The notes beneath the pieces were generated by a model that saw only the letters and a program-made list of their open reading frames with translations, searched no databases and had not been told where the DNA came from. Of a stretch of DNA of 25,886 nt, positions 2,114 through 23,970 are shown one piece after another (the stretch's first letter is position 1; every line of letters begins with the position of its first letter). A program made the translations under genes and the position numbers. The stretch is from Octopus sinensis (taxonomy: Eukaryota). Where the stretch lies: the NCBI RefSeq assembly GCF_006345805.1, contig NW_021836037.1, positions 1-25,886 on the forward strand, in the 5' to 3' direction.

Positions 2114-2352
2114 AACACTATACAAATATTCTTCTAAAAAAATTTTCTTTTAATTTTTCTAAATTTAATTATTTAATTGTTACAGTTGAAAAAGTCTCAA
2201 TGACTGAAACCGGTACTGAAATATTTTTTATAAAATTATTTTAGCATTTTCTATCTTGACATTTTTTCCATATATATTTGTATGTATGTATATATATGCA
2301 TGTGTGTGTGGTGTGTGTGTGTGTTGTGTGTGTGTGCGTGCGTGTGTGCATG

Positions 2353-2574
2353 AAGGCGACGTGCTGGCAGATTCGTTACCGCACCAGACAAAGTGCTTAG
2401 CTGCATTTCGTCTGTTCTTACGTCCTGAGTTGAAATTCCGCCGAGATCGTCTTTGACTTTTTATCTTTTCAAAGATCGATAAATCAAGATGCAGCTGAGC
2501 AATGGGGGTTGATATTATCGACTTAACCTCCCCACCACAACCGCCTACGAAATTGCTGTCCTTGTGCCCAAAAC
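2353..2574 (+). mobile_element. Old, diverged relative of SINE family A with a different 3' tail
   Basis: Colinear with the head and body at 19916-20080 (GCTGGCAGA, GAGTTGAAATTCCGCCGAG, ATCGACTTAA), then ends in AAATTGCTGTCCTTGTGCCCAAAA instead of the Tx1-type tail. Confidence 0.75.
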
Positions 2575-2577
2575 TGC

Positions 2578-2679
2578 AAGGCAAAGTCGACCTCGGCGGA
2601 ATCTGAACTCAGAACGTAGCGGCAGACGAAATACCGCTAAGCATTTCGCCCGGCCCGCTAACCTTTCTGCCAGCTCGCC
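2578..2679 (-). mobile_element. SINE family A, 5' part with an intact, unoccupied target site
   Basis: Reverse complement GGCGAGCTGGCAGAAAGGTTAGCGGGCCGGGCGAAATGCTTAGCGGTATTTCGTCTGCCGCTACGTTCTGAGTTCAGATTCCGCCGAGGTCGACTTTGCCTT matches 19919-20020. Confidence 0.9.
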
Positions 2680-4237: not shown

Positions 4238-4782
<545 letters not shown>

Positions 4783-9866: not shown

Positions 9867-10100
9867 GAGGCGCAATGGCCTAGTGGTTAGGGCAGCGGAC
9901 TCGCGGTCGCAGGATCGAGGTTTCGATTCTCAGACTGGGCGTTGTGTGTGTTTATTGAGCGAAAACACCTAAAAGCTCTACGAGGCTCTGGCAGGGGGTG
10001 GTGATCCCTGCTGTACTCTTTCACCACAATGGCGGTGCCCCAGCATGGCCACAGCTCAAGAGCTGAAACTGGAAAAACAAAAACAAAAAACAAACAAAAC
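9867..10100 (+). mobile_element. SINE family C head and body joined to the GGTGCCCCAGC-type tail with (AAAAAC)n
   Basis: A box TGGCCTAGTGG, B box GTTTCGATTC; homology to 4238-4530 stops at CTCTTTCACCAC (~10027). Confidence 0.8.
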
Positions 10101-10648: not shown

Positions 10649-11189
10649 TATTTCTTTATTGCCCACAAGGGGCTAAACACGCAGGGGACAAACAAGGACA
10701 GACAAAGGGTTTAAATCGATTATATCGACGCCAGTAGGTAACTGGTAGTTATTTAATCGACCCCGAAAGGATGAAAGGTAAAGTCGACCTCGGCGGAATT
10801 TGAACTGAGAACATAGCGGCAGACGAAATACCTATTTCTTTACTACCCACAAGGGGTTAAATACAGAGGGGACAAACAAGGACAGACAACGGATTAAATC
10901 GATTAATCGACCCACAGTCGTAACTGGTACTTAATTTAATCGACTCCGAAAGGATGAAAGCAGTCGACCTCGGCGGAATTTGAACTCAGAACGTAGCGGC
11001 AGACGAATACCTATTTCTTTACTACCCAAAGGGCTAAACACAGAGGGAAAACAAAGGACAGACAAAGGATTAAGTCGATTACATCGACCCAGTGCGTAAC
11101 TGGTACTTAATTTATCGACCCCGAAAGGATGAAAGGCAAAGTCGACCTCGGCGGAATTTGAACTCAGAACGTAACGGCAGACGAATACC
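10649..11189 (-). repeat. Tandem array of three headless SINE-A units (~180 bp each); the head is displaced to 16493-16558 by the LINE
   Basis: Units 10649-10832, 10833-11011 and 11012-11189; each reads on the minus strand GGTATT(T)CGTCTGCCG..GTTCAAATTCCGCCGAGGTCGAC..TAAAGAAATA. Confidence 0.92.
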
Positions 11190-11438
11190 AATTTCTTTAT
11201 TGCCCACCGGGGGCCAAACATAGATATGGACAGTACAACTGATGGGATCAGTGAATCGATATGATTTTACATAAATGTGACATCAAAAATAAAATACAAT
11301 ACATAAAAATCGAATGGAATACACAGTACAAAAACAATACAAATGAAGCGATGATCAAGTTACGCTCCGATCCCACAAGCCCCGATCTACCGCTGATACC
11401 TTTTTATTTTTCCTTTTTTTTTTTTTTTCCTCGTCTAT

Positions 11439-14400
11439 TCACACGGTTCCTTGCACGCACAACACTCGTGCAACATACTTCCATCTCTTTTGGAACGTAC
11501 ACTCTGACAGACACCTCTTCTCCAGCCACAGTTTCCTTTTCAAATGAAAAGAAAAAAAGGATCGTAAATTGTCACCAGAGATAAAGTTGCCTGTCTTAAT
11601 TCCTTTTATCCTAGTATTCCATACAGCCTCTTTTGCTATTGCTACAACCGTGAGAAAACAATTCTTACCTTCGTTCGTTAGAACTCCCGGTGGGTCAATT
11701 TTTATAATTGACTCAGTCGACAGCCGTACTCTTCCTTCGCCGGACAACAGATGTTCAGCATAAGCCCACATTTCAGTTATCTCCGGACACTGAACAATAG
11801 CGTGAGGGACGGTTTCCTGTCCCCACCGCATCTTGGACAGGTCGGCGACTGACGTTTACCATGTCTTGCGAGCTTATCCCAAACGGGCAAGGCACCTCTG
11901 TAGCATTGCCAGGTTAAGGACTTTTGGAAGTTGTCCAACGTTCTCAACCCGAATGTACGATGAAACAAGCTGTCCAGTTGAATAAATCCGAGACCTAGAG
12001 TCGACCCCAGGCCATCGTCGCATTCAGACTCTACCACCCACTATATAAAATCCGTGTGGAACCCCCACCGCTGGCGTTGCCCGAGCGCCGGAACAGCAAG
12101 AGGGCCTTACGGCACTCTTTATGCCACTCACTCGACCTCGGTCTACGAGAACACCAGGCTTCCTGTTCGCAAAAACTCTTGAACTCAGGGAACATTTGTC
12201 TGGCCAGCGGAGACCACACCCGTTCACTATCCAGGAGAATCCAGAGGTGCCTCAACCTCAACGCATGTCTGCGCATCATTAACCAAGGCATCCCTAAACC
12301 TCCATTTAAAGGCTTTTGACAGCAGACAGAGCGTTTCACAAGTGGCGACCTGCCCTTCCACAAAAAGCGAAAGAGCTGTCTCTCCAACCTGATCAACCAC
12401 GAATCCGGACAGGGCACGACAGTCAGGCGGTAGGTAATGACCGATGCGATAAACACATTGGCCACTTCCGCCCTCCCTTTCAGGGATAGCCACCGCCAAG
12501 ACCAAGTCTTGACTACTGCAGCCACCCTGCTCAATACCTCCGTCCATTTCTTCTCTATCTGGAGGCCTGGTCCAAACCAGACTCCCAGCAACTTAACCGG
12601 TCCCTCCGTCCAGCGCCTAACAACACTGTCTGAAGGCATCGACTTGCCAACCCAGGTGCCGAGCTGCAAGCCGACCGACTTTTCCCGGTTAATCTTTGCT
12701 CCTGCTACCTCCTCGTAAGCCTCAATAGTCTTACCTACTTCACGTAGGCGTACCACTGTGGTTACACTGATAGTGATATCATCCGCGAAAGCCGTAACAA
12801 ACTCCTCTCTAGTCCTGGTTCTCTCGGGGATGCCACTCAACCTTTGCAGTAATGGCTCGAGAGCCATCACATACAAAAGTGGTGAAAGCGGACATCCTTG
12901 ACGAACCGAGCGTCTGATGCAGAACGGCTTCGAAAGGAAACCGTTCACCCGAACTATCGAGTCAATGTTGTGGTACAAAGCGATAAACCACCTGAGGAAG
13001 CCAAGGCCCAGGCCAAACCGCGCAAGTACAGTCGCTAGGTATCGATGGTCAACCCTATCAAAAGCTTTAGACTGGTCCAAATGCACCAATGCCCCACCTT
13101 TGCCAGATTTATTACCAAACCTCTCTATGGTATAGCGAATAAGATGGAGGGTATCCTGAATGGTTCTGCCTGGGATGGCACATGTCTGTGCCTCCCCGAC
13201 TATACCATTCGCGACACGCGCCAACCTTTTTGCTAGAACCTTGGCCAAAATCTTCACTTCTGCGTTTAACAGAGTGATGGGCCTGAAATTCTCTAGAACG
13301 TCCCCCTTGTCCGGGTCCTTTCTGACCAACGTCACTACTCCCCGGCGCACAGATCTGGGGATAAACCCATTCTGTTTCCAGTTCGCGTACACGTCAGTCA
13401 GTAGTTGCCCGAACAAGTCTGGCATACATTTATACAGCTCGTACGGAAGACCATCAAGTCCCGGTGACTTACCCGCTTTACAATCGGCCAAAGCCTCCAT
13501 CACCTCCTCAAGTGTGATTGGCCCTTCGCAAGACTCCGCATCCGACCCCGAGAGGCACGGCAGCCCGGTAAGAAAGTCCTCGAGGGCTCTCCCACCACCA
13601 GGACCGCCGTCACCCCCGAACAGCTGGGCGAAGTACTCCCGAAAGACCTCACACATTTTCTCGGGTTCGTTTATCAAGACACCATTTTGATTCGTCAAAG
13701 ACCGAATAGAGGAACTATTTCCTTGCCGAGCTTCCACCACTCGGGCCCATCCAGCGGCTTTGATTCCTTCACTTCCCATTGCACGTAACTTAGCTCTGGT
13801 AATACTTCCCATGTGGTGGGCTTCAAGATGCTGGTTTAACTCCAGTCTTTTCACCCTCGCTTGGTCTGTATTACCAGTCCTCCAGGCTTCTAGTTCCTTA
13901 ACTAGACCATCTCCTATTTTACGTCCCTTCTTAGCTAAACTTATGCTAAACCTAATAGACTCATATTTGATGGCTCTTTTTAGGGCGTACCACCATTTGT
14001 TATTAATGATGGTACCTGTTAATGCCCTCTGTATTAACATCTTGATCCGCTTTCTGTACTCCTCAATCGCCAAAAGGGACGTATTGAGTTTCCAGTAGCC
14101 AGATCCCTGTCTATGCAACTAGAAAAAACTGTGGACACTCAACTATGGACTTATCTTTTTCTCTAATTAAAATCCTATCTAGATATGTTCTGGTAGACCC
14201 GTCACTATTTGACCACGTCCACTGTGGAGTGTTCGGGTGCTCCAACCTATATGGATCTGCTAGCTGAAATTGACTTAGCAGATCCCGAAAGCCTGTGTTA
14301 CATTTTCTGTTCATGTTCGAGTTTGAGCCAACACCATCTGTGTGTGCTGCACATATTGTATTAGAGTCTCCTAACACTACTAGTGAATGCGACGTGGCTA

Positions 14401-14788
14401 GGAACTTTCCTAGGCCACGAAAATATTCAGTTTGCGGGCCAATAATGTTTGGTGCATAAATAGCGACCAGCCTGATTGTCTTGCCACAACTGAATGTCAA
14501 GTCGAGAACGACCAGCCTGCCTTCTGGGTCAGAAAAAACCAACTTTTTCTCGGCTACCCGGTTTCTTTTTAGTAGGACCAACACCCCACCCCCACCTCCC
14601 GCCCGACTCGGAGAAACGTATTTCTCGTAGCCGTTCAGGAGGGGGAGCAGATCTCTTGGCCCCTTCACCCGGGTTTCCGTTGCAACAATTACATCCAAAT
14701 TTCTCGACCTGATGTCATTCAGAAAGCGTCCTTGCTTCCAGCTTGACAACAGGCCATGAACATTTAAACAACCAATGTGAATAGCCAT
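11439..14788 (-). pseudogene. ORF2: APE endonuclease, reverse transcriptase and C-terminal CCHC (zf-RVT), broken into at least 4 frames
   Basis: EN: CLNVHGL, TET, AIYAPN, GDSN, YLDRIL. RT: KSPGLDGLPYE, FRPITLLN, LDQSKAFDRV, VRQGCPLSP, FADD, KLLGV. C-terminus: CPRC..ETVPHAIVQC. Breaks near 14115, 12035 and 11825. Confidence 0.93.
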
Positions 14789-14799
14789 CACTTACCTGT

Positions 14800-16356
14800 T
14801 TAATTAGGATTGTCCGGTGGAGGGGGACCCTCCACCTTTTTTTATCCAGGGTCGGAGGTGGACGGTCTTGGGAAATAGATTTGTCAAAATCCCGTCTCAC
14901 CACCGACACAGAATTATCAGGTGGAGGGGGAATCTCCACCTTTTCCTTTTCTCGCGGGATCGGAGCTGGTAATCCATGAAATATCGACTTGTTAAAATCT
15001 AATCTCAATGAAGATACAGTCTTTCTGTACTTATTTTGTAGAATTCTATAAGTCTTATTTGAGACTTCATATATGTCGTAATTGATAAATTCCTCTGAAA
15101 GGTTATCAATTTTTTTACAGTCTTTATGAGTTGAATGTCTCTCATGAGCTCAGTATCTTTAGTGTATACGGCTATTATGCCTTTTTCTTCTTTTTCTCTT
15201 CTGGCAGTCTTTTTTGGTCGTTGTTCTGTAGTAGTCGCCGCTCTCGGCTGGGTTGCTGGTTGTATTTTTCTTTTGTTTGTTGTTTTTTTCTCATCTGTTT
15301 CTTCTTTATCTTCTTCCTCTTTGTCTTTTTTCTCCTCTTCCTCTCTTCTTCATTTTCCTTGCAGTTCCTTCGAATGTGGCCTAATTGACCACATAAAAAA
15401 CATCGAGGTTTTCGGCCCTCAACAAACCACGAGGTTCTCCTCCCCTACCTCAATTGTCTCAGGAATTGTTTGAATTATTTTAGGGTCCGCTTGAATGAGA
15501 AGATTAATTGTTTTACCATCCCAGCGTGGGTTTTCCGTAGCGGTAGCCTGGAGGAGAGTAATTTTTTCTACCTCTTTGATTAGGACTGCCGCCAACACCA
15601 CATAGGTTCGACCTCTGGCGGGACCCTTGTAATTTTTATTCGCGACGTCCTCATCCCATATATAATAGGGTATTAACTCCACGTCGTTCGTTTTCAACGT
15701 TTCCACTGAGTTCTTGTGTGCTATTTCTTTATTGGTGAACCTTACTTCCACCGTTCCGAATTTTTTTCCTCTTCTCAGAAATACTACGTCTCGCCCAATA
15801 TTGGCTTTAAGCACTTTTCTATTTTCTCTTCTGACATTCTTTCAATTTTTCTATTTTGTAGACAATATGTTTTGAAAATTATTGTTTTTTGCTTTTCTTC
15901 TTCCTGTAATAACTTTTGCGGAGGTTCAATTTTCACACTGTTGTCATTTATTTCCATCATTTTGCTGTATTTCATAATTTCGCTTTTATTCGTCGACAGT
16001 ATCTGGGTTCCACCCCCAGCAGCCAACGCAAAACTTTTTTTTCCATTTTTTGGTTCTATCTGGATGCTAGGCACATCAATTATTCTCTTCGACACAATGC
16101 CTTTGTTCTCTGGCAAAGTCGGAAACTCTTCTGGTGAAAGTTCTGACGAGCTCTCAGACACATCTCCAAAAATATCAAATATATTATCCTCTCTGCTATT
16201 CCTTCTTGTAGCGGGGGAAACCCCTATTTCCTTGTCTGTAGTTGGCTCCTCGCCGGACATGTATTTCCTCCTCTCAACAGGAGAAACAAGTATTTCTGCT
16301 CCAACGGTAGGCTCCATGCTAGACGACATTCTTCCCCCCAAAGGGGGAATGAACAA
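14800..16356 (-). pseudogene. ORF1 (gag-like nucleic-acid-binding protein) with a zinc knuckle, frameshifted
   Basis: Pieces 15784-16356 and 15419-15814; then EGRKPRCFLCGQLGHIRRNC (CX2CX4HX4C, 15361-15402), a K/E-rich stretch and a Pro-rich end; lies directly upstream of ORF2. The start codon is uncertain. Confidence 0.8.
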
Positions 16357-16492
16357 CGCGTGCTACCACAAGCACTAAGTGTTTTCAATTGAAAACTCCA
16401 ACAGTTAAGTTATTCAACAGTTTAACAAGAAACAACAGTTGTTAACAATATTAACACCACGAAACAGCAATTCTTACTTCACGAACACATGT

Positions 16493-16558
16493 GCGGCAGA
16501 CGAAATACCGCTTAGCATTTCGCCCGGCGTGCTAACGTTTCTGCCAGCTCGCCGTCTT
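16493..16558 (-). mobile_element. SINE-A 5' head (A box) left upstream of the LINE insertion
   Basis: Reverse complement GGCGAGCTGGCAGAAACGTTAGCACGCCGGGCGAAATGCTAAGCGGTATTTCGTCTGCCGC, nearly identical to 19919-19979. Confidence 0.92.
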
Positions 16559-17394
16559 TCACAAAATACCGAACAAACTGCTTTAATTTACAATTTTTCT
16601 GATTTCCTAATTTTTGCATCTTAATTTTTAATATTTCATATGGAAGAAGTAAAAGAATAAAAAGAAAAAGAAAAGAATTTCAGTATGGGCCACTTTGTAT
16701 TCTGTAATATTGAACGCTTATATCCAAAGATGCCTCTATAATAGTAACATGTATCAGCTTTTTGTATGATGTAATCCTATATTTAATAGTTAATGTTTTT
16801 TTAATATACTCTGGGACTCCTGGGACTCCTGGGACTCCTTCGAAATTCATTTTAGTAAAGTTTTGATCTACTGATGAGACAAGGAATATAACCAGGGGAG
16901 TTAATTCCTTTGGGATTCAATGAACTCCGCACTGTTTATCTGATCTTCACAGGGAGTCTCTGGATGCTGACGAAAACGACCTGACCAGTCTGTTCCGGAG
17001 AACTTTCTGGTCGGAAATTATGATGGATAATTTCAAGATGTCCTTGACCTGGCAGTACACCCGGGATAAGGGTGGGGCGCAACCAGTTCGGAATATATTC
17101 TACAGGAACGGATGTGCTGTCAGACTGGCTTGTCCAAGGTACACGCAGGGTGACCAAACCGTTCTTGCACGCCATCGTTCAGTGTCCGGGCATTGCTGAC
17201 TTGTAGGGTTTGGGAATTGATCCGGTACCAGTCAAGGATTCTGGATTACTTTTACTGCTTTTTTTTTATACTGAATTTTCGAAAGCGGCCGGGTTCATAT
17301 TTAATATTCTCGTTTGCGAGAGCAATCGAGTTTATTACAGATATTTTCATTTTAAAATTCATCTCTGGCTAATCTTTGAGGGGACGTTGGTGTT

Positions 17395-17550: not shown

Positions 17551-17867
17551 TCAGTAGTTTTATTTTAATAGCGTGCTTTCACTTCACTACCGAGCGCAGG
17601 TCTGTGTGCCTTAGGTATGTGATGTGATTTGTTGTGATGCTCTGATGGTTATTGTATGGAAAGTGTTCTGCGTAGGATGTGTGCAGTGCCTAGTAGTGCA
17701 ATTTTCTGTATGTTATATGTGTTTGTAAGTCCTGGTGTTTTTGTTATGTATTTGTCTGAATGTTTTTTTATCATGCCTAATGTACCTATTATGATAGGGA
17801 TTGTTTCTGCTTTTGGATTCCACATTCTGGTTACCTCTATTTCCAGGTCTTTGTATTTTGAAAGTTT
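17551..17867 (-). mobile_element. 5'-truncated R4/Dong-like (RLE-type) non-LTR element 3' end within (TAA)n
   Basis: Minus-strand translation LSKYKDLEIEVTRMWNPKAETIPIIIGTLGMIKK..IQKIALLGTAHILRRTLSIQ* (stop 17649-17651) is the R4/Dong-type C-terminus; flanked by TAA repeats, the known Dong target. Confidence 0.8.
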
Positions 17868-18186
17868 ATTATTATTATTAATGCCTAATGCACCTATTAT
17901 GATAGGGCTTGTTTCTGCTTTTAGATTCCACTTCCGGTTACCTCTATTTCCAGGTCTTTGTATTTTGAAAGTTTATTATTATTATTAATGCCTAATGCAC
18001 CTATTATGATAGGGCTTGTTTCTGCTTTTAGATTCCACTTCTGGTTACCTCTATTTCCAGGTCTTTGTATTTTGAAAGTTTATTATTATTATTAATGCCT
18101 AATGCACCTATTATGATAGGGCGTGTTTCTGCTTTTAGATTCCACATTCTGGTTACCTCTATTTTCAGGTCTTTGTATTTTGAAAG

Positions 18187-18188
<2 letters not shown>
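17773..18188. repeat. Four ~107-bp tandem units made of the Dong-like 5' junction plus (TAT)n
   Basis: Units start ATGCCTAATG at 17773, 17881, 17988 and 18095. Confidence 0.92.
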
Positions 18189-18230
<42 letters not shown>

Positions 18231-18875: not shown

Positions 18876-19915
18876 TCCGTATTCACTTATTGTAATTATT
18901 AAGAAGTATTTATTTCCTATGATGCATTATACGTCCGGATTGTGGATTTATTTTACTGGACGATAAATCTGTTAGGTCTTTGGGCGGGCATTGCTTTTCT
19001 GTGATGCTATAATGATTAAACTTATAACGTGATCAAATATCCGGGTTTGACTACATTGGCTTTAATTCATTCCATTATTTACTGTTTCTTTTTCAGTGCC
19101 TTTTGAACATGAAAATTTATATACAGCTGGGTGTATAGATATATATTCATATCTTTCACACATGATTTTGAGGACATTTATGGTTCACAGTGCTTTGGAT
19201 CTGCGTGGGGAGTGGGGTGGGGGCGAATGCTTGAGAGTTGCATGGATGCATATATGCTTGTATATGTGAATATACAGTTATATATGTATAGATATACATG
19301 TACATACATACATATATATTTGCATAAAGGGATAGGGGGTTTTTAAAGGAAACTTGACAGCCTGTTCCTTAGTCAATTCACACAAGGAGACAAAAACACT
19401 CGGATGCGGTAAAATACAGAAATGGGAAAAAAACTATATTCGTGGGAAAACTAACTGCACCCAGGCACTTTACCTATGACATACCTATTGATGTTATTCC
19501 CACACCGATACAAATTATGTGTTCATAATAAACACACCAAAGTACATACACACATTAGCCATACATACACAGTTACATATGTGTTTGTGAAAACATATGT
19601 ATATATGTATGTACTTATCTGTGTGTGTATTTATGTATGTATGTGGTTATGGATGTATGTATTAATGTATAGAAATATTTAAATACAAAAATACACTTGT
19701 AAGATATGTATTTTGATATTTCTCTACCGTTCAGAACATCGTTAAAACCACGTCCGCCATGTTGTTTAGTTTTATTGTGTTCTCTACACATTCTGTCTTT
19801 TACTGTGTCTTCTTGTCTTTGCGGTTGTTTTTCTTCCTACTGCTTCTTGGTGAGACTAAACTTCCCGTTTCAAGAATGCTAAGCGATATCAAATAAAGGG
19901 ATGAGGGTTTTTAAA

Positions 19916-20879
19916 GGAGGCGAGCTGGCAGAAACGTTAGCACGCCGGGCGAAATGCTTAGCGGTATTTCGTCTGCTGCTACGTTCTGAGTTCAAATTCC
20001 GCCGAGGTCGACTTTGCCTTTCATCCTTTCGGGGTCGATAATTAAGTACCATTTACGCACTGTGTCGAGTAATCGACTTAATACCTATGTCTGTCCTTGT
20101 TTGTCCCCTCTATGTTTACCCCTTGTGGATAATAAAGAATAGGTATTTCGGTCTGCTGCTACGGTTCTGATTTCAAATTCCCCGAGGTCGACTTTGCCTT
20201 TCATCCTTTCGGGGTCGATTAAATAAGTACCAGTTACGCACTGGGGTCGATGTAATCGACTTAATACCTATGTCTGTCCTTCTTTGTCCCCTCTATGTTT
20301 AGCCCCCTTGGGGTAATAAAGAAATAGGTATTTCGTCTGCTGCTACGTTCTTGAGTTCAAATTCCGCCGAGGTCGACTTTGCCTTTCATCCTTTCGGGGT
20401 CGATTAAATAAGTACCAGTTACGCACTGGAGTCGATATAATCGACTTAATCCGTTTGTCTGTCCTTGTTTGTCCCCTCTATGTTTAGCCCCTTGTGGGTA
20501 ATAAAGAAATAGGTATTTCGTCTGCTGCTACGTTCTGAGTTCAAATTCCGCTGAGGTCGACTTTGCCTTTCATCCTTTCGGGGTCGATTAAATAAGTACC
20601 AGTTACGCACTGGGGTCGATGTAATCGACTTAATACCTATGTCTGTCCTTGTTTGTCCCCTCTATGTTTAGCCCCTTGTGGGTAATAAAGAAATAGGTAT
20701 TTCGTCTGCTGCTACATTCTGAGTTCAAATTCTGCCGAGGTCGACTTTGCCTTTCATCCTTTCGGGGTCGATTAAATAAGTACCAGTTACGCACTGGGGT
20801 CGATATAATCGACTTAATCCGTTTGTCTGTCCTTGTTTGTACTCTCTGTGTTTAGCCCCTTGTGGGTAGTAAAGAAATA
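19916..20879 (+). mobile_element. SINE-A tandem array: one tRNA-like head plus five ~184-bp body/tail units, flanked by a 14-bp TSD
   Basis: Units start GGTATTTCG at 19963, 20142, 20327, 20512 and 20696; B box GAGTTCAAATTCC; TSD GATATCAAATAAAG at 19885-19898 and 20880-20893. Confidence 0.93.
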
Positions 20880-21047
20880 GATATCAAATAAAGCTATATA
20901 TTTCAGACTAACTGATTAGAGCTCGTTTTGGAAGGGACATGATTACATGATATTGAGAAATCGTATCATCTCAGAAATAGGCAGCTGAGATGCGAATTTG
21001 TTTCACTTCGTTATTAAGTATTTTGTGTCTTTAACACAATACGTCTA

Positions 21048-23536: not shown

Positions 23537-23970
23537 AATGCTCCTGCAAAGAGAAGCAACAGAAATACACTACATAGACAAAACAATGCTCCTGCAAAGA
23601 CATGCAACAGAAATACACTACATACACAACACAATGCTCCTGCAAAGAGAAGCAACAGAAATACACTACATAGACAAAACAATGCTCCTGCAAAGACATG
23701 CAACAGAAATACACTACATACACAACACAATGCTCCTGCAAAGACAAGCAACAGAAATACACTACATACACAACACAATGCTCCTGCAAAGACAAGCAAC
23801 AGAAATACACTACATACACAACACAATGCTCCTGCAAAGACAAGCAACAGAAATACACTACATACACAACACAATGCTCCTGCAAAGACAAGCAACAGAA
23901 ATACACTACATACACAACACAATGCTCCTGCAAAGAGAAGCAACAGAAATACACTACATATACAACACAA
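23537..23970. repeat. 48-bp minisatellite, 9 copies
   Basis: Unit AATGCTCCTGCAAAGA(G/C)A(A/T)GCAACAGAAATACACTACATA(C/G)ACAA(C/A)AC. Confidence 0.95.

Follow-up and report, generated by a model that had tools for sequence, protein, structure and literature searches.

A Tx1-like LINE of Octopus sinensis is inserted into a SINE that shares its 3' end and is probably its partner

The window analysed here, 25,886 nucleotides (nt) in full, comprises positions 1 to 25,886 of the forward strand of Octopus sinensis contig NW_021836037.1 (assembly GCF_006345805.1). It is AT-rich, contains many microsatellites, and carries a long interspersed element (LINE) as well as two tandem arrays, A1 and A2, of a short interspersed element (SINE). 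Here, we show that the LINE is inserted into the SINE and that the two elements end in a common 34-nt tail, and we consider what this implies for their relationship. Evidence on the LINE comes from one copy in the window and evidence on the SINE from two arrays. The LINE and its parts are as follows.

11190..16492, minus strand: near-full-length (5.3 kb), disrupted LINE of the type without long terminal repeats (non-LTR), L1/Tx1-like
15355..16329, minus strand: broken open reading frame 1 (ORF1) region, with an ATG at 16329 and a CCHC zinc knuckle at 15426-15355, resembling ORF1 of related elements
14114..14788, minus strand: apurinic-type endonuclease domain of ORF2 (PF03372, E 5e-11)
12034..14118, minus strand: reverse transcriptase (RT) region of ORF2, 695 codons free of stops (PF00078, E 2e-29)
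11439..12019, minus strand: C-terminal part of ORF2 in two further frames, with the stop at 11441-11439
11225..11438, minus strand: 3' untranslated region (UTR) specific to the LINE, with an A-rich run at 11428-11401 just past the stop
11191..11224, minus strand: shared 3' terminus of the LINE, 34 nt, with a possible 4-bp hairpin, AATAAA and no poly(A); 30/34 match to the SINE

The SINE copies and insertion sites to which the LINE is compared are listed next, motif T being the sequence that follows the SINE head.

16510..16559, minus strand: SINE head of array A1, split from its body by the LINE and ending at the probable nick site
16493..16509, minus strand: 5' copy of the 17-nt target-site duplication of the LINE, identical with SINE motif T
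11174..11189, minus strand: 3' copy of this duplication, shorter by one base and altered at its last base; SINE unit A1u1 begins with it
10649..11189, minus strand: array A1, three headless units (11189-11012, 11011-10833, 10832-10649), each running from motif T to the tail
2575..2679, minus strand: incomplete SINE copy with the head, motif T and the first part of the body, showing the empty target site
19875..19898, plus strand: genomic insertion site of array A2, consisting of a target mimic and the 5' copy of a 14-nt duplication (19885-19898)
19913..19962, plus strand: SINE head of array A2
19963..20879, plus strand: array A2, five units (19963-20141, 20142-20326, 20327-20511, 20512-20695, 20696-20879)
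20880..20893, plus strand: 3' copy of the 14-nt duplication flanking A2

The 5' flank of the LINE consists of the SINE head followed by T, and its 3' flank of T again, followed by the SINE body. The LINE is inserted into the SINE with motif T as its target-site duplication, and the insert bracketed by the two T copies includes the 34-nt tail. Five exact TGCTWAGC sites were found in the window, four of them in SINE heads and the fifth at the insertion site of A2. The LINE target is a quasi-palindrome, and the SINE head folds as a long hairpin (19912-20030, plus strand; z -2.6, 7/200 shuffles) with the probable nick site near its apex.

Over the 34 nt common to both 3' ends, the LINE (11224-11191, minus strand) matches SINE units A2u3 and A2u4 at 30 positions; the base that follows (11190) is T in the LINE and A in the SINE. 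Within the window, this match has a blastn E value of about 1e-9, and the alignment score of the last 35 nt of the LINE was reached by none of 2,000 dinucleotide shuffles. A degenerate 34-nt tail pattern, allowing up to three mismatches, matched the LINE and six of the eight SINE units (0/100 shuffles), the two missed units having small deletions. The preliminary description of this DNA, which had both elements ending alike over about 34 nt with about four differences and without poly(A), was thus borne out beyond shuffles: no poly(A) follows either 3' end in the window, the SINE ending on a single A and the LINE on T. The homology has a sharp 5' edge, with the blocks at -60..-35, -95..-35, and -95..-60 at shuffle level (p 0.30-0.73). 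An extension beyond 34 nt, plausible by eye, was discarded since these upstream blocks score like shuffles. The small hairpin also proposed in that description can form, and its four pairs are kept in 5/5 distinct ungapped rows (3 of the 8 SINE tails, having indels, were omitted from this comparison), with an outer pair of G-C, G-U or A-U. Statistical support was not obtained, as 296/500 shuffles did as well, covariation was not significant, and in folding the LINE had a z of +0.14 and the SINE one of -1.45.

Both arrays are built as one head followed by n copies of T plus body, with n = 3 in A1 and n = 5 in A2, and both terminate at the identical tail base. At 6/6 internal junctions, a complete tail is joined to the first base of T, which is also the base of the LINE 3' junction. 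Counted from head to tail, the units carry 2, 4, and 11 private substitutions in A1 and 3, 2, 1, 1, and 4 in A2; divergence is highest in the 3'-most unit, which looks oldest, in both arrays, a weak signal given a chance expectation of 1/15. Only one variant, located at a CpG within T, is fixed in one array (A2) and lacking in the other (A1), and the body variants of A2 form two linked types. This placement agrees with a local DNA origin of T and with different templates for the bodies, and a partial DNA-level duplication is possibly compatible with it as well.

An A-box-like site is present in 4/4 SINE heads at no more than one mismatch, and no strict match was found to the B-box consensus. 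ARAGORN made no transfer RNA (tRNA) call in the head, and Rfam, including its small nuclear RNA (snRNA) families, gave no match. The SINE body presumably resembles the Meta domain, the 66-bp segment that follows the head in MetaSINEs. Short strings tried against the supplements of PMC4824008, PMC11481361, PMC3472496, and PMC5804259 found no match (here and below, statements on published work refer to the portions of the cited sources available to us). Single-base indels in homopolymers at 10830-11200 and 19963-20326 are possibly long-read errors. An older monomeric SINE at 2352-2572 (plus strand) agrees with the array SINE in its head and in the beginning of its body, whereas its tail is another one and its target motif is altered. 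It adjoins the partial copy at 2575-2679 in inverted orientation and likely represents a tail-swapped sister family, which would make it a natural control.

The site at which A2 landed resembles the LINE target at 15/20 positions around the nick and at 10/10 upstream of it (P about 6e-6; 4e-5 to 2e-3 at other symmetric window sizes). Only 4 of about 51,700 window positions outscore it, which equals the number of SINE heads; the A2 site is the best non-SINE mimic of the LINE target in the window. SINE and LINE share an insertion signature, comprising the same junction base, duplications of 14 and 17 nt, and the target mimic at A2. Extra bases between the A2 duplication and the head (19899-19914, plus strand) are nearly identical to DNA about 570 bp upstream (19325-19350), overlapping the end of the duplication, and look like templated fill at the 5' junction.

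The LINE has the organization of the L1 group, with an apurinic-type endonuclease followed by RT in ORF2 and an upstream ORF1 with a zinc knuckle. Its RT is closer to human L1 ORF2p (162 bits) than to R2 (63-77 bits) among solved structures. In an RT search, the best named relatives came from Argonauta hians (60%) and Sepia pharaonis (45%), and no relative was closer than 63%. A scan of bacterial bins yielded 53 loci with related elements, apparently in contaminating eukaryotic DNA. Rfam placed U1, U2 or 5S genes in 6 of the 15 loci to which it was applied, and at five inspected loci the element end directly abuts a U1, U2 or 5S gene fragment, mostly after a short A-run and in one case with a 13-nt duplication. 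These gene-inserted relatives share 31-33% identity with the window RT and score 277-312 bits against it, compared with 162 for human L1 at the same database size. One of them resumes at U2 nt 35-37, near, though not at, nt 39 reported for Utopia/Keno. An endonuclease search for named full-length relatives returned no match at E 1e-8, and none of 10 relative clusters that were looked up bears a Tx1 name. A midpoint-rooted RT tree placed the window RT in a separate 15-row branch; since this tree holds no named Tx1 reference or outgroup, we infer membership in the Tx1 clade. The one LINE copy is inserted in a specific multicopy sequence and bracketed by a target-site duplication, and target specificity would extend from this copy to the family.

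Several loci of the bacterial-bin scan deserve mention in their own right. A bin labelled Arenicella (L001-L035, L037, L039, L040; contigs CAXXMW0100000xx) is rich in contigs on which intact Tx1-like LINEs form pure head-to-tail arrays, one element following the next every 6.4-6.6 kb or so. Poly(A) is not clear in them, the single junction scanned with Rfam contained no RNA, and the contigs are apparently eukaryotic contamination. Tx1-like elements also occur in U1 snRNA genes at differing positions (L051 3478-3505 and 9015-9050; L036 about 10008; L046 about 7285), one of them near the 5' end of the gene with a 13-nt duplication. No U1-targeting LINE is listed in the available text of the 2015 Utopia paper. 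Within the window, a second, diverged LINE fragment of the same group (16942-17203, plus strand; 47% identity over 53 amino acids to the main LINE) lies in the opposite orientation and is cut by another repeat.

Taken together, we propose that a site-specific Tx1-type LINE targets the SINE head and also copies the SINE via the shared 34-nt, poly(A)-less 3' end. We put the probability of this reading, and of the LINE-SINE partnership that it entails, at about 0.7. The striking feature, on which the preliminary description is silent, is that the SINE is the target of its own partner, and that the tandem units start at exactly that site. The partnership had already been suggested in the preliminary description on the basis of the tail; the argument is stronger than stated there because LINE and SINE share the insertion site as well, while the presence of the tail in the LINE family consensus, recognition of the stringent type, which is an experimental property, and a role of the hairpin are putative. 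Because the LINE both targets and copies the SINE, the SINE would insert into itself and build head-(unit)n arrays.

Established knowledge of target-primed reverse transcription is the basis of the steps that we envisage. The ORF2 endonuclease would nick the bottom strand at the boundary of head and T, reading mostly the 8-10 bases upstream of the nick, reverse transcription would start at the end of the shared tail, and the top strand would be cut 14-17 nt downstream. A copy already in the target is followed by T, and read-through RNA might pair with the nicked primer strand, probably aiding priming and giving exact junctions without poly(A). Read-through of A2 would be allowed because this array has no run of four T. 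The SINE complementary DNA may then join the upstream head and T by homology, leaving the new unit headless. Each insertion would regenerate the head-T boundary and a complete first unit, with arrays growing from the head side and the SINE continuing to supply the LINE with targets. For R1Bm, accurate priming reportedly depends on downstream target sequence carried by the RNA (PMC7265360, citing Anzai 2005). It is tempting to speculate on a closed loop in octopods, to which we would give even odds: an abundant SINE as both dedicated target and parasite of a Tx1 LINE, borrowing its poly(A)-less tail, inserting into its own promoter region and leaving that region functional, priming on read-through target, growing polarised arrays and making safe landing sites for the LINE.

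Several observations weigh against the proposed partnership. Neither a duplication nor a target mimic was found around the flanks of A1. The tail hairpin can form without significance in folding or covariation. A single LINE copy was seen, and indirect searches found no second. The closest loci among the relatives (43%) are pure head-to-tail LINE arrays without the tail of the window LINE; similarity of the LINE UTR to relatives past the A-run is only marginal (p 0.03-0.27, 9 loci), and no profile match was found within the UTR. The A-rich run, which begins 10 nt past the ORF2 stop, could be an alternative LINE end, and the sharp stop of homology at 34 nt is equally predicted by a template switch. 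Scattered 1-nt deletions in the array region suggest read errors. Finally, the substitution test described below is a post hoc statistic from 8 units, and it is weaker if an adjacent TT>CG change was a single event.

Further searches for the tail and the SINE were likewise negative. The tail was not found conserved in the distant relatives at the 53 loci, the tail pattern had 0 matches in genome contigs (a set without a eukaryotic genome collection), the SINE matched no plasmid or phage, and screening for chance peptides that span the junction of LINE and tail produced 1 candidate, with none scoring. Some LINE frameshifts may, like the array indels, be long-read errors. Downstream of the ORF2 stop, the five bases after the A-rich run equal the first five of motif T (11428-11385, minus strand), which is not a duplication; we considered a second insertion nested behind the A-run and rejected it, as the bases there match T, by eye, in the first five positions only.

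Among the alternatives to the partnership, a chimera confined to this locus fares best, although we regard it as unlikely. Reverse transcription would have begun on a SINE RNA or another short RNA with this tail at its end and, after 34 to about 210 nt, have changed template to the LINE RNA; otherwise, the tail region would have been acquired by 3' transduction. Targeting and mobilisation of the SINE by the LINE would hold in this case too, but the LINE family would lack the shared tail. Such an event would account for the sharp edge of homology, the A-rich run right past the ORF2 stop and the marginal UTR homology to relatives, and template switching is documented for Tx1/SINEU (PMC4494074). 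By count, the differences of the LINE tail lie within the spread of the SINE tails (0-4 differences to A2u4). Their kind, however, sets it apart: it has 3 private differences from all 8 SINE tails, all AT>GC, whereas 17/28 private SINE changes are GC>AT and 3/28 AT>GC (P 8e-5 to 1.4e-3 for the contrast), and the open RT frame caps decay of this copy at about 3%. In the 6 relatives with a scored A-tail past the stop, moreover, the distance from stop to A-tail is about 170 nt or more rather than 10 nt, and mollusc SINE-LINE pairs normally share tails of 35-61 nt at 72-95% identity (PMC11481361).

Somewhat more doubtful still is that the arrays arose mainly by DNA-level duplication or unequal crossing-over, or from ready-made multimers, self-insertion having happened once or rarely and the usual partner of the SINE being perhaps another LINE. 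One two-unit duplication of a trimer could yield the variant pattern of A2, a single duplication flanks the entire array, and its lack of a run of four T would allow the whole of it to be one RNA polymerase III transcript; recombination has been proposed for SINE tandem arrays in bivalves and squamates (PMC11481361, PMC10702118). A random breakpoint, though, would not yield a unit boundary that coincides in two arrays with the SINE 3' end and the LINE junction; at least 2 source types in A2 and a landing site that mimics the LINE target also speak against this reading. DNA-level duplication and self-insertion can both operate. The least probable alternative, named in the preliminary description as what would overturn its claim, is that the 34 nt are a SINE remnant, left by insertion of the LINE at a point 34 nt short of a unit end together with loss of about 130 nt of SINE body: the 30/34 identity falls within SINE-tail variation and the tail is in register with the array, but LINE and tail sit together between two T copies, the deletion would have to end exactly 17 nt past the unit boundary, the LINE would have neither its own 3' end nor its own duplication, and the AT>GC pattern would go unexplained.

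Other repeats in the window are two copies of another tRNA-like SINE, recognized by eye (9868-10085, plus strand; about 4250-4530, minus strand), a 107-bp tandem repeat with 4 copies at 97% (17773-18202), which ends in (TTA)n and has a reading frame of retroelement type beside it, and a tandem repeat of 48 bp with 9 copies at 96% (23537-23970).

The exception stated for tail sharing is the LINEs of the L1 clade (PMC3747384). If the partnership of the octopus LINE and SINE is true, an animal Tx1 pair without poly(A) bears on whether specific 3'-end recognition is ancestral in the clade. Self-targeting by a SINE would offer a simple, testable origin for SINE tandem arrays and would constitute a source of satellite-like arrays driven by retrotransposition. 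In the O. vulgaris genome, SINEs account for 11.6%, and we predict that such arrays are entered in repeat libraries as families of their own or as satellites. The defined 34-nt tail and the target of roughly 20 nt make RNA and DNA recognition assayable.

In the literature searched, we found no report of a tail-sharing or SINE-targeting Tx1 pair, and repeat databases may already hold an entry. The L1-clade pairs known to share tails, ZmSINE2/3 with LINE1-1_ZM and SINEX-3_CR with L1-1_CR (Ohshima 2013, PMC3747384), resemble the octopus pair in their shared 3' end and proposed hairpin. In Table 1 of that paper, 3/58 pairs are L1-clade, all plant or algal and none Tx1; in its available text, none of them is described as site-specific, and the Chlamydomonas pair ends in poly(A). 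MetaSINEs, including cuttlefish SepiaSINE2, combine a tRNA-like head and a conserved body with exchangeable tails (Nishihara 2016, PMC4824008), much as the sister copy in the window has the same head with another tail; their partner LINEs were unknown in 2016. For bivalve SINEs, the partners given are CR1, CR1-Zenon, L2, and Nimb, with no mention of Tx1 in the available text (PMC11481361). Head-to-tail multimers like those of the octopus arrays are known from Scapharca broughtonii SINE arrays and squamate SINE-derived satellites, whose units are truncated at the tail or internal, whereas the octopus units keep the full 3' end and start at the LINE target (PMC11481361, PMC10702118).

The target-specific Tx1 elements Tx1L, Keno, Kibi, and Koshi are like the octopus LINE in combining an apurinic-type endonuclease with RT, a multicopy target and a similar duplication length, and the behaviour of its relatives at snRNA and 5S genes is that described for Tx1 (PMC4494074, PMC4640811). 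The targets named for Tx1 in these sources are DNA transposons, LTR elements, snRNA genes, 5S genes, satellites, and microsatellites; the putatively tRNA-like SINE head differs from all of them. Small-RNA-targeting relatives mostly keep short A-tails, unlike the octopus LINE. R1Bm, of the R1 clade, has a ribosomal DNA target and no SINE, and could serve as an analogy for priming alone (PMC7265360).

The closest case is SINEU/Tx1-Mar of crocodilians, in which a Tx1 LINE and a SINE insert at one site with a 16-nt duplication (Kojima 2015, PMC4494074). SINEU-3 occurs in tandem copies with the duplication between them, explained by sequential insertion, and the octopus pair likewise has a shared target and tandem SINEs that sequential insertion would produce. 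SINEU elements have a poly(A) tail, snRNA heads and a third element, Mariner-N4_AMi, as target, whereas the octopus SINE has no poly(A), gave no Rfam snRNA match in its head and is itself the target. Moreover, the available text of that study gives no LINE sharing the 3' end of SINEU-1, in contrast to the octopus SINE, which shares its tail with the LINE inserted in it.
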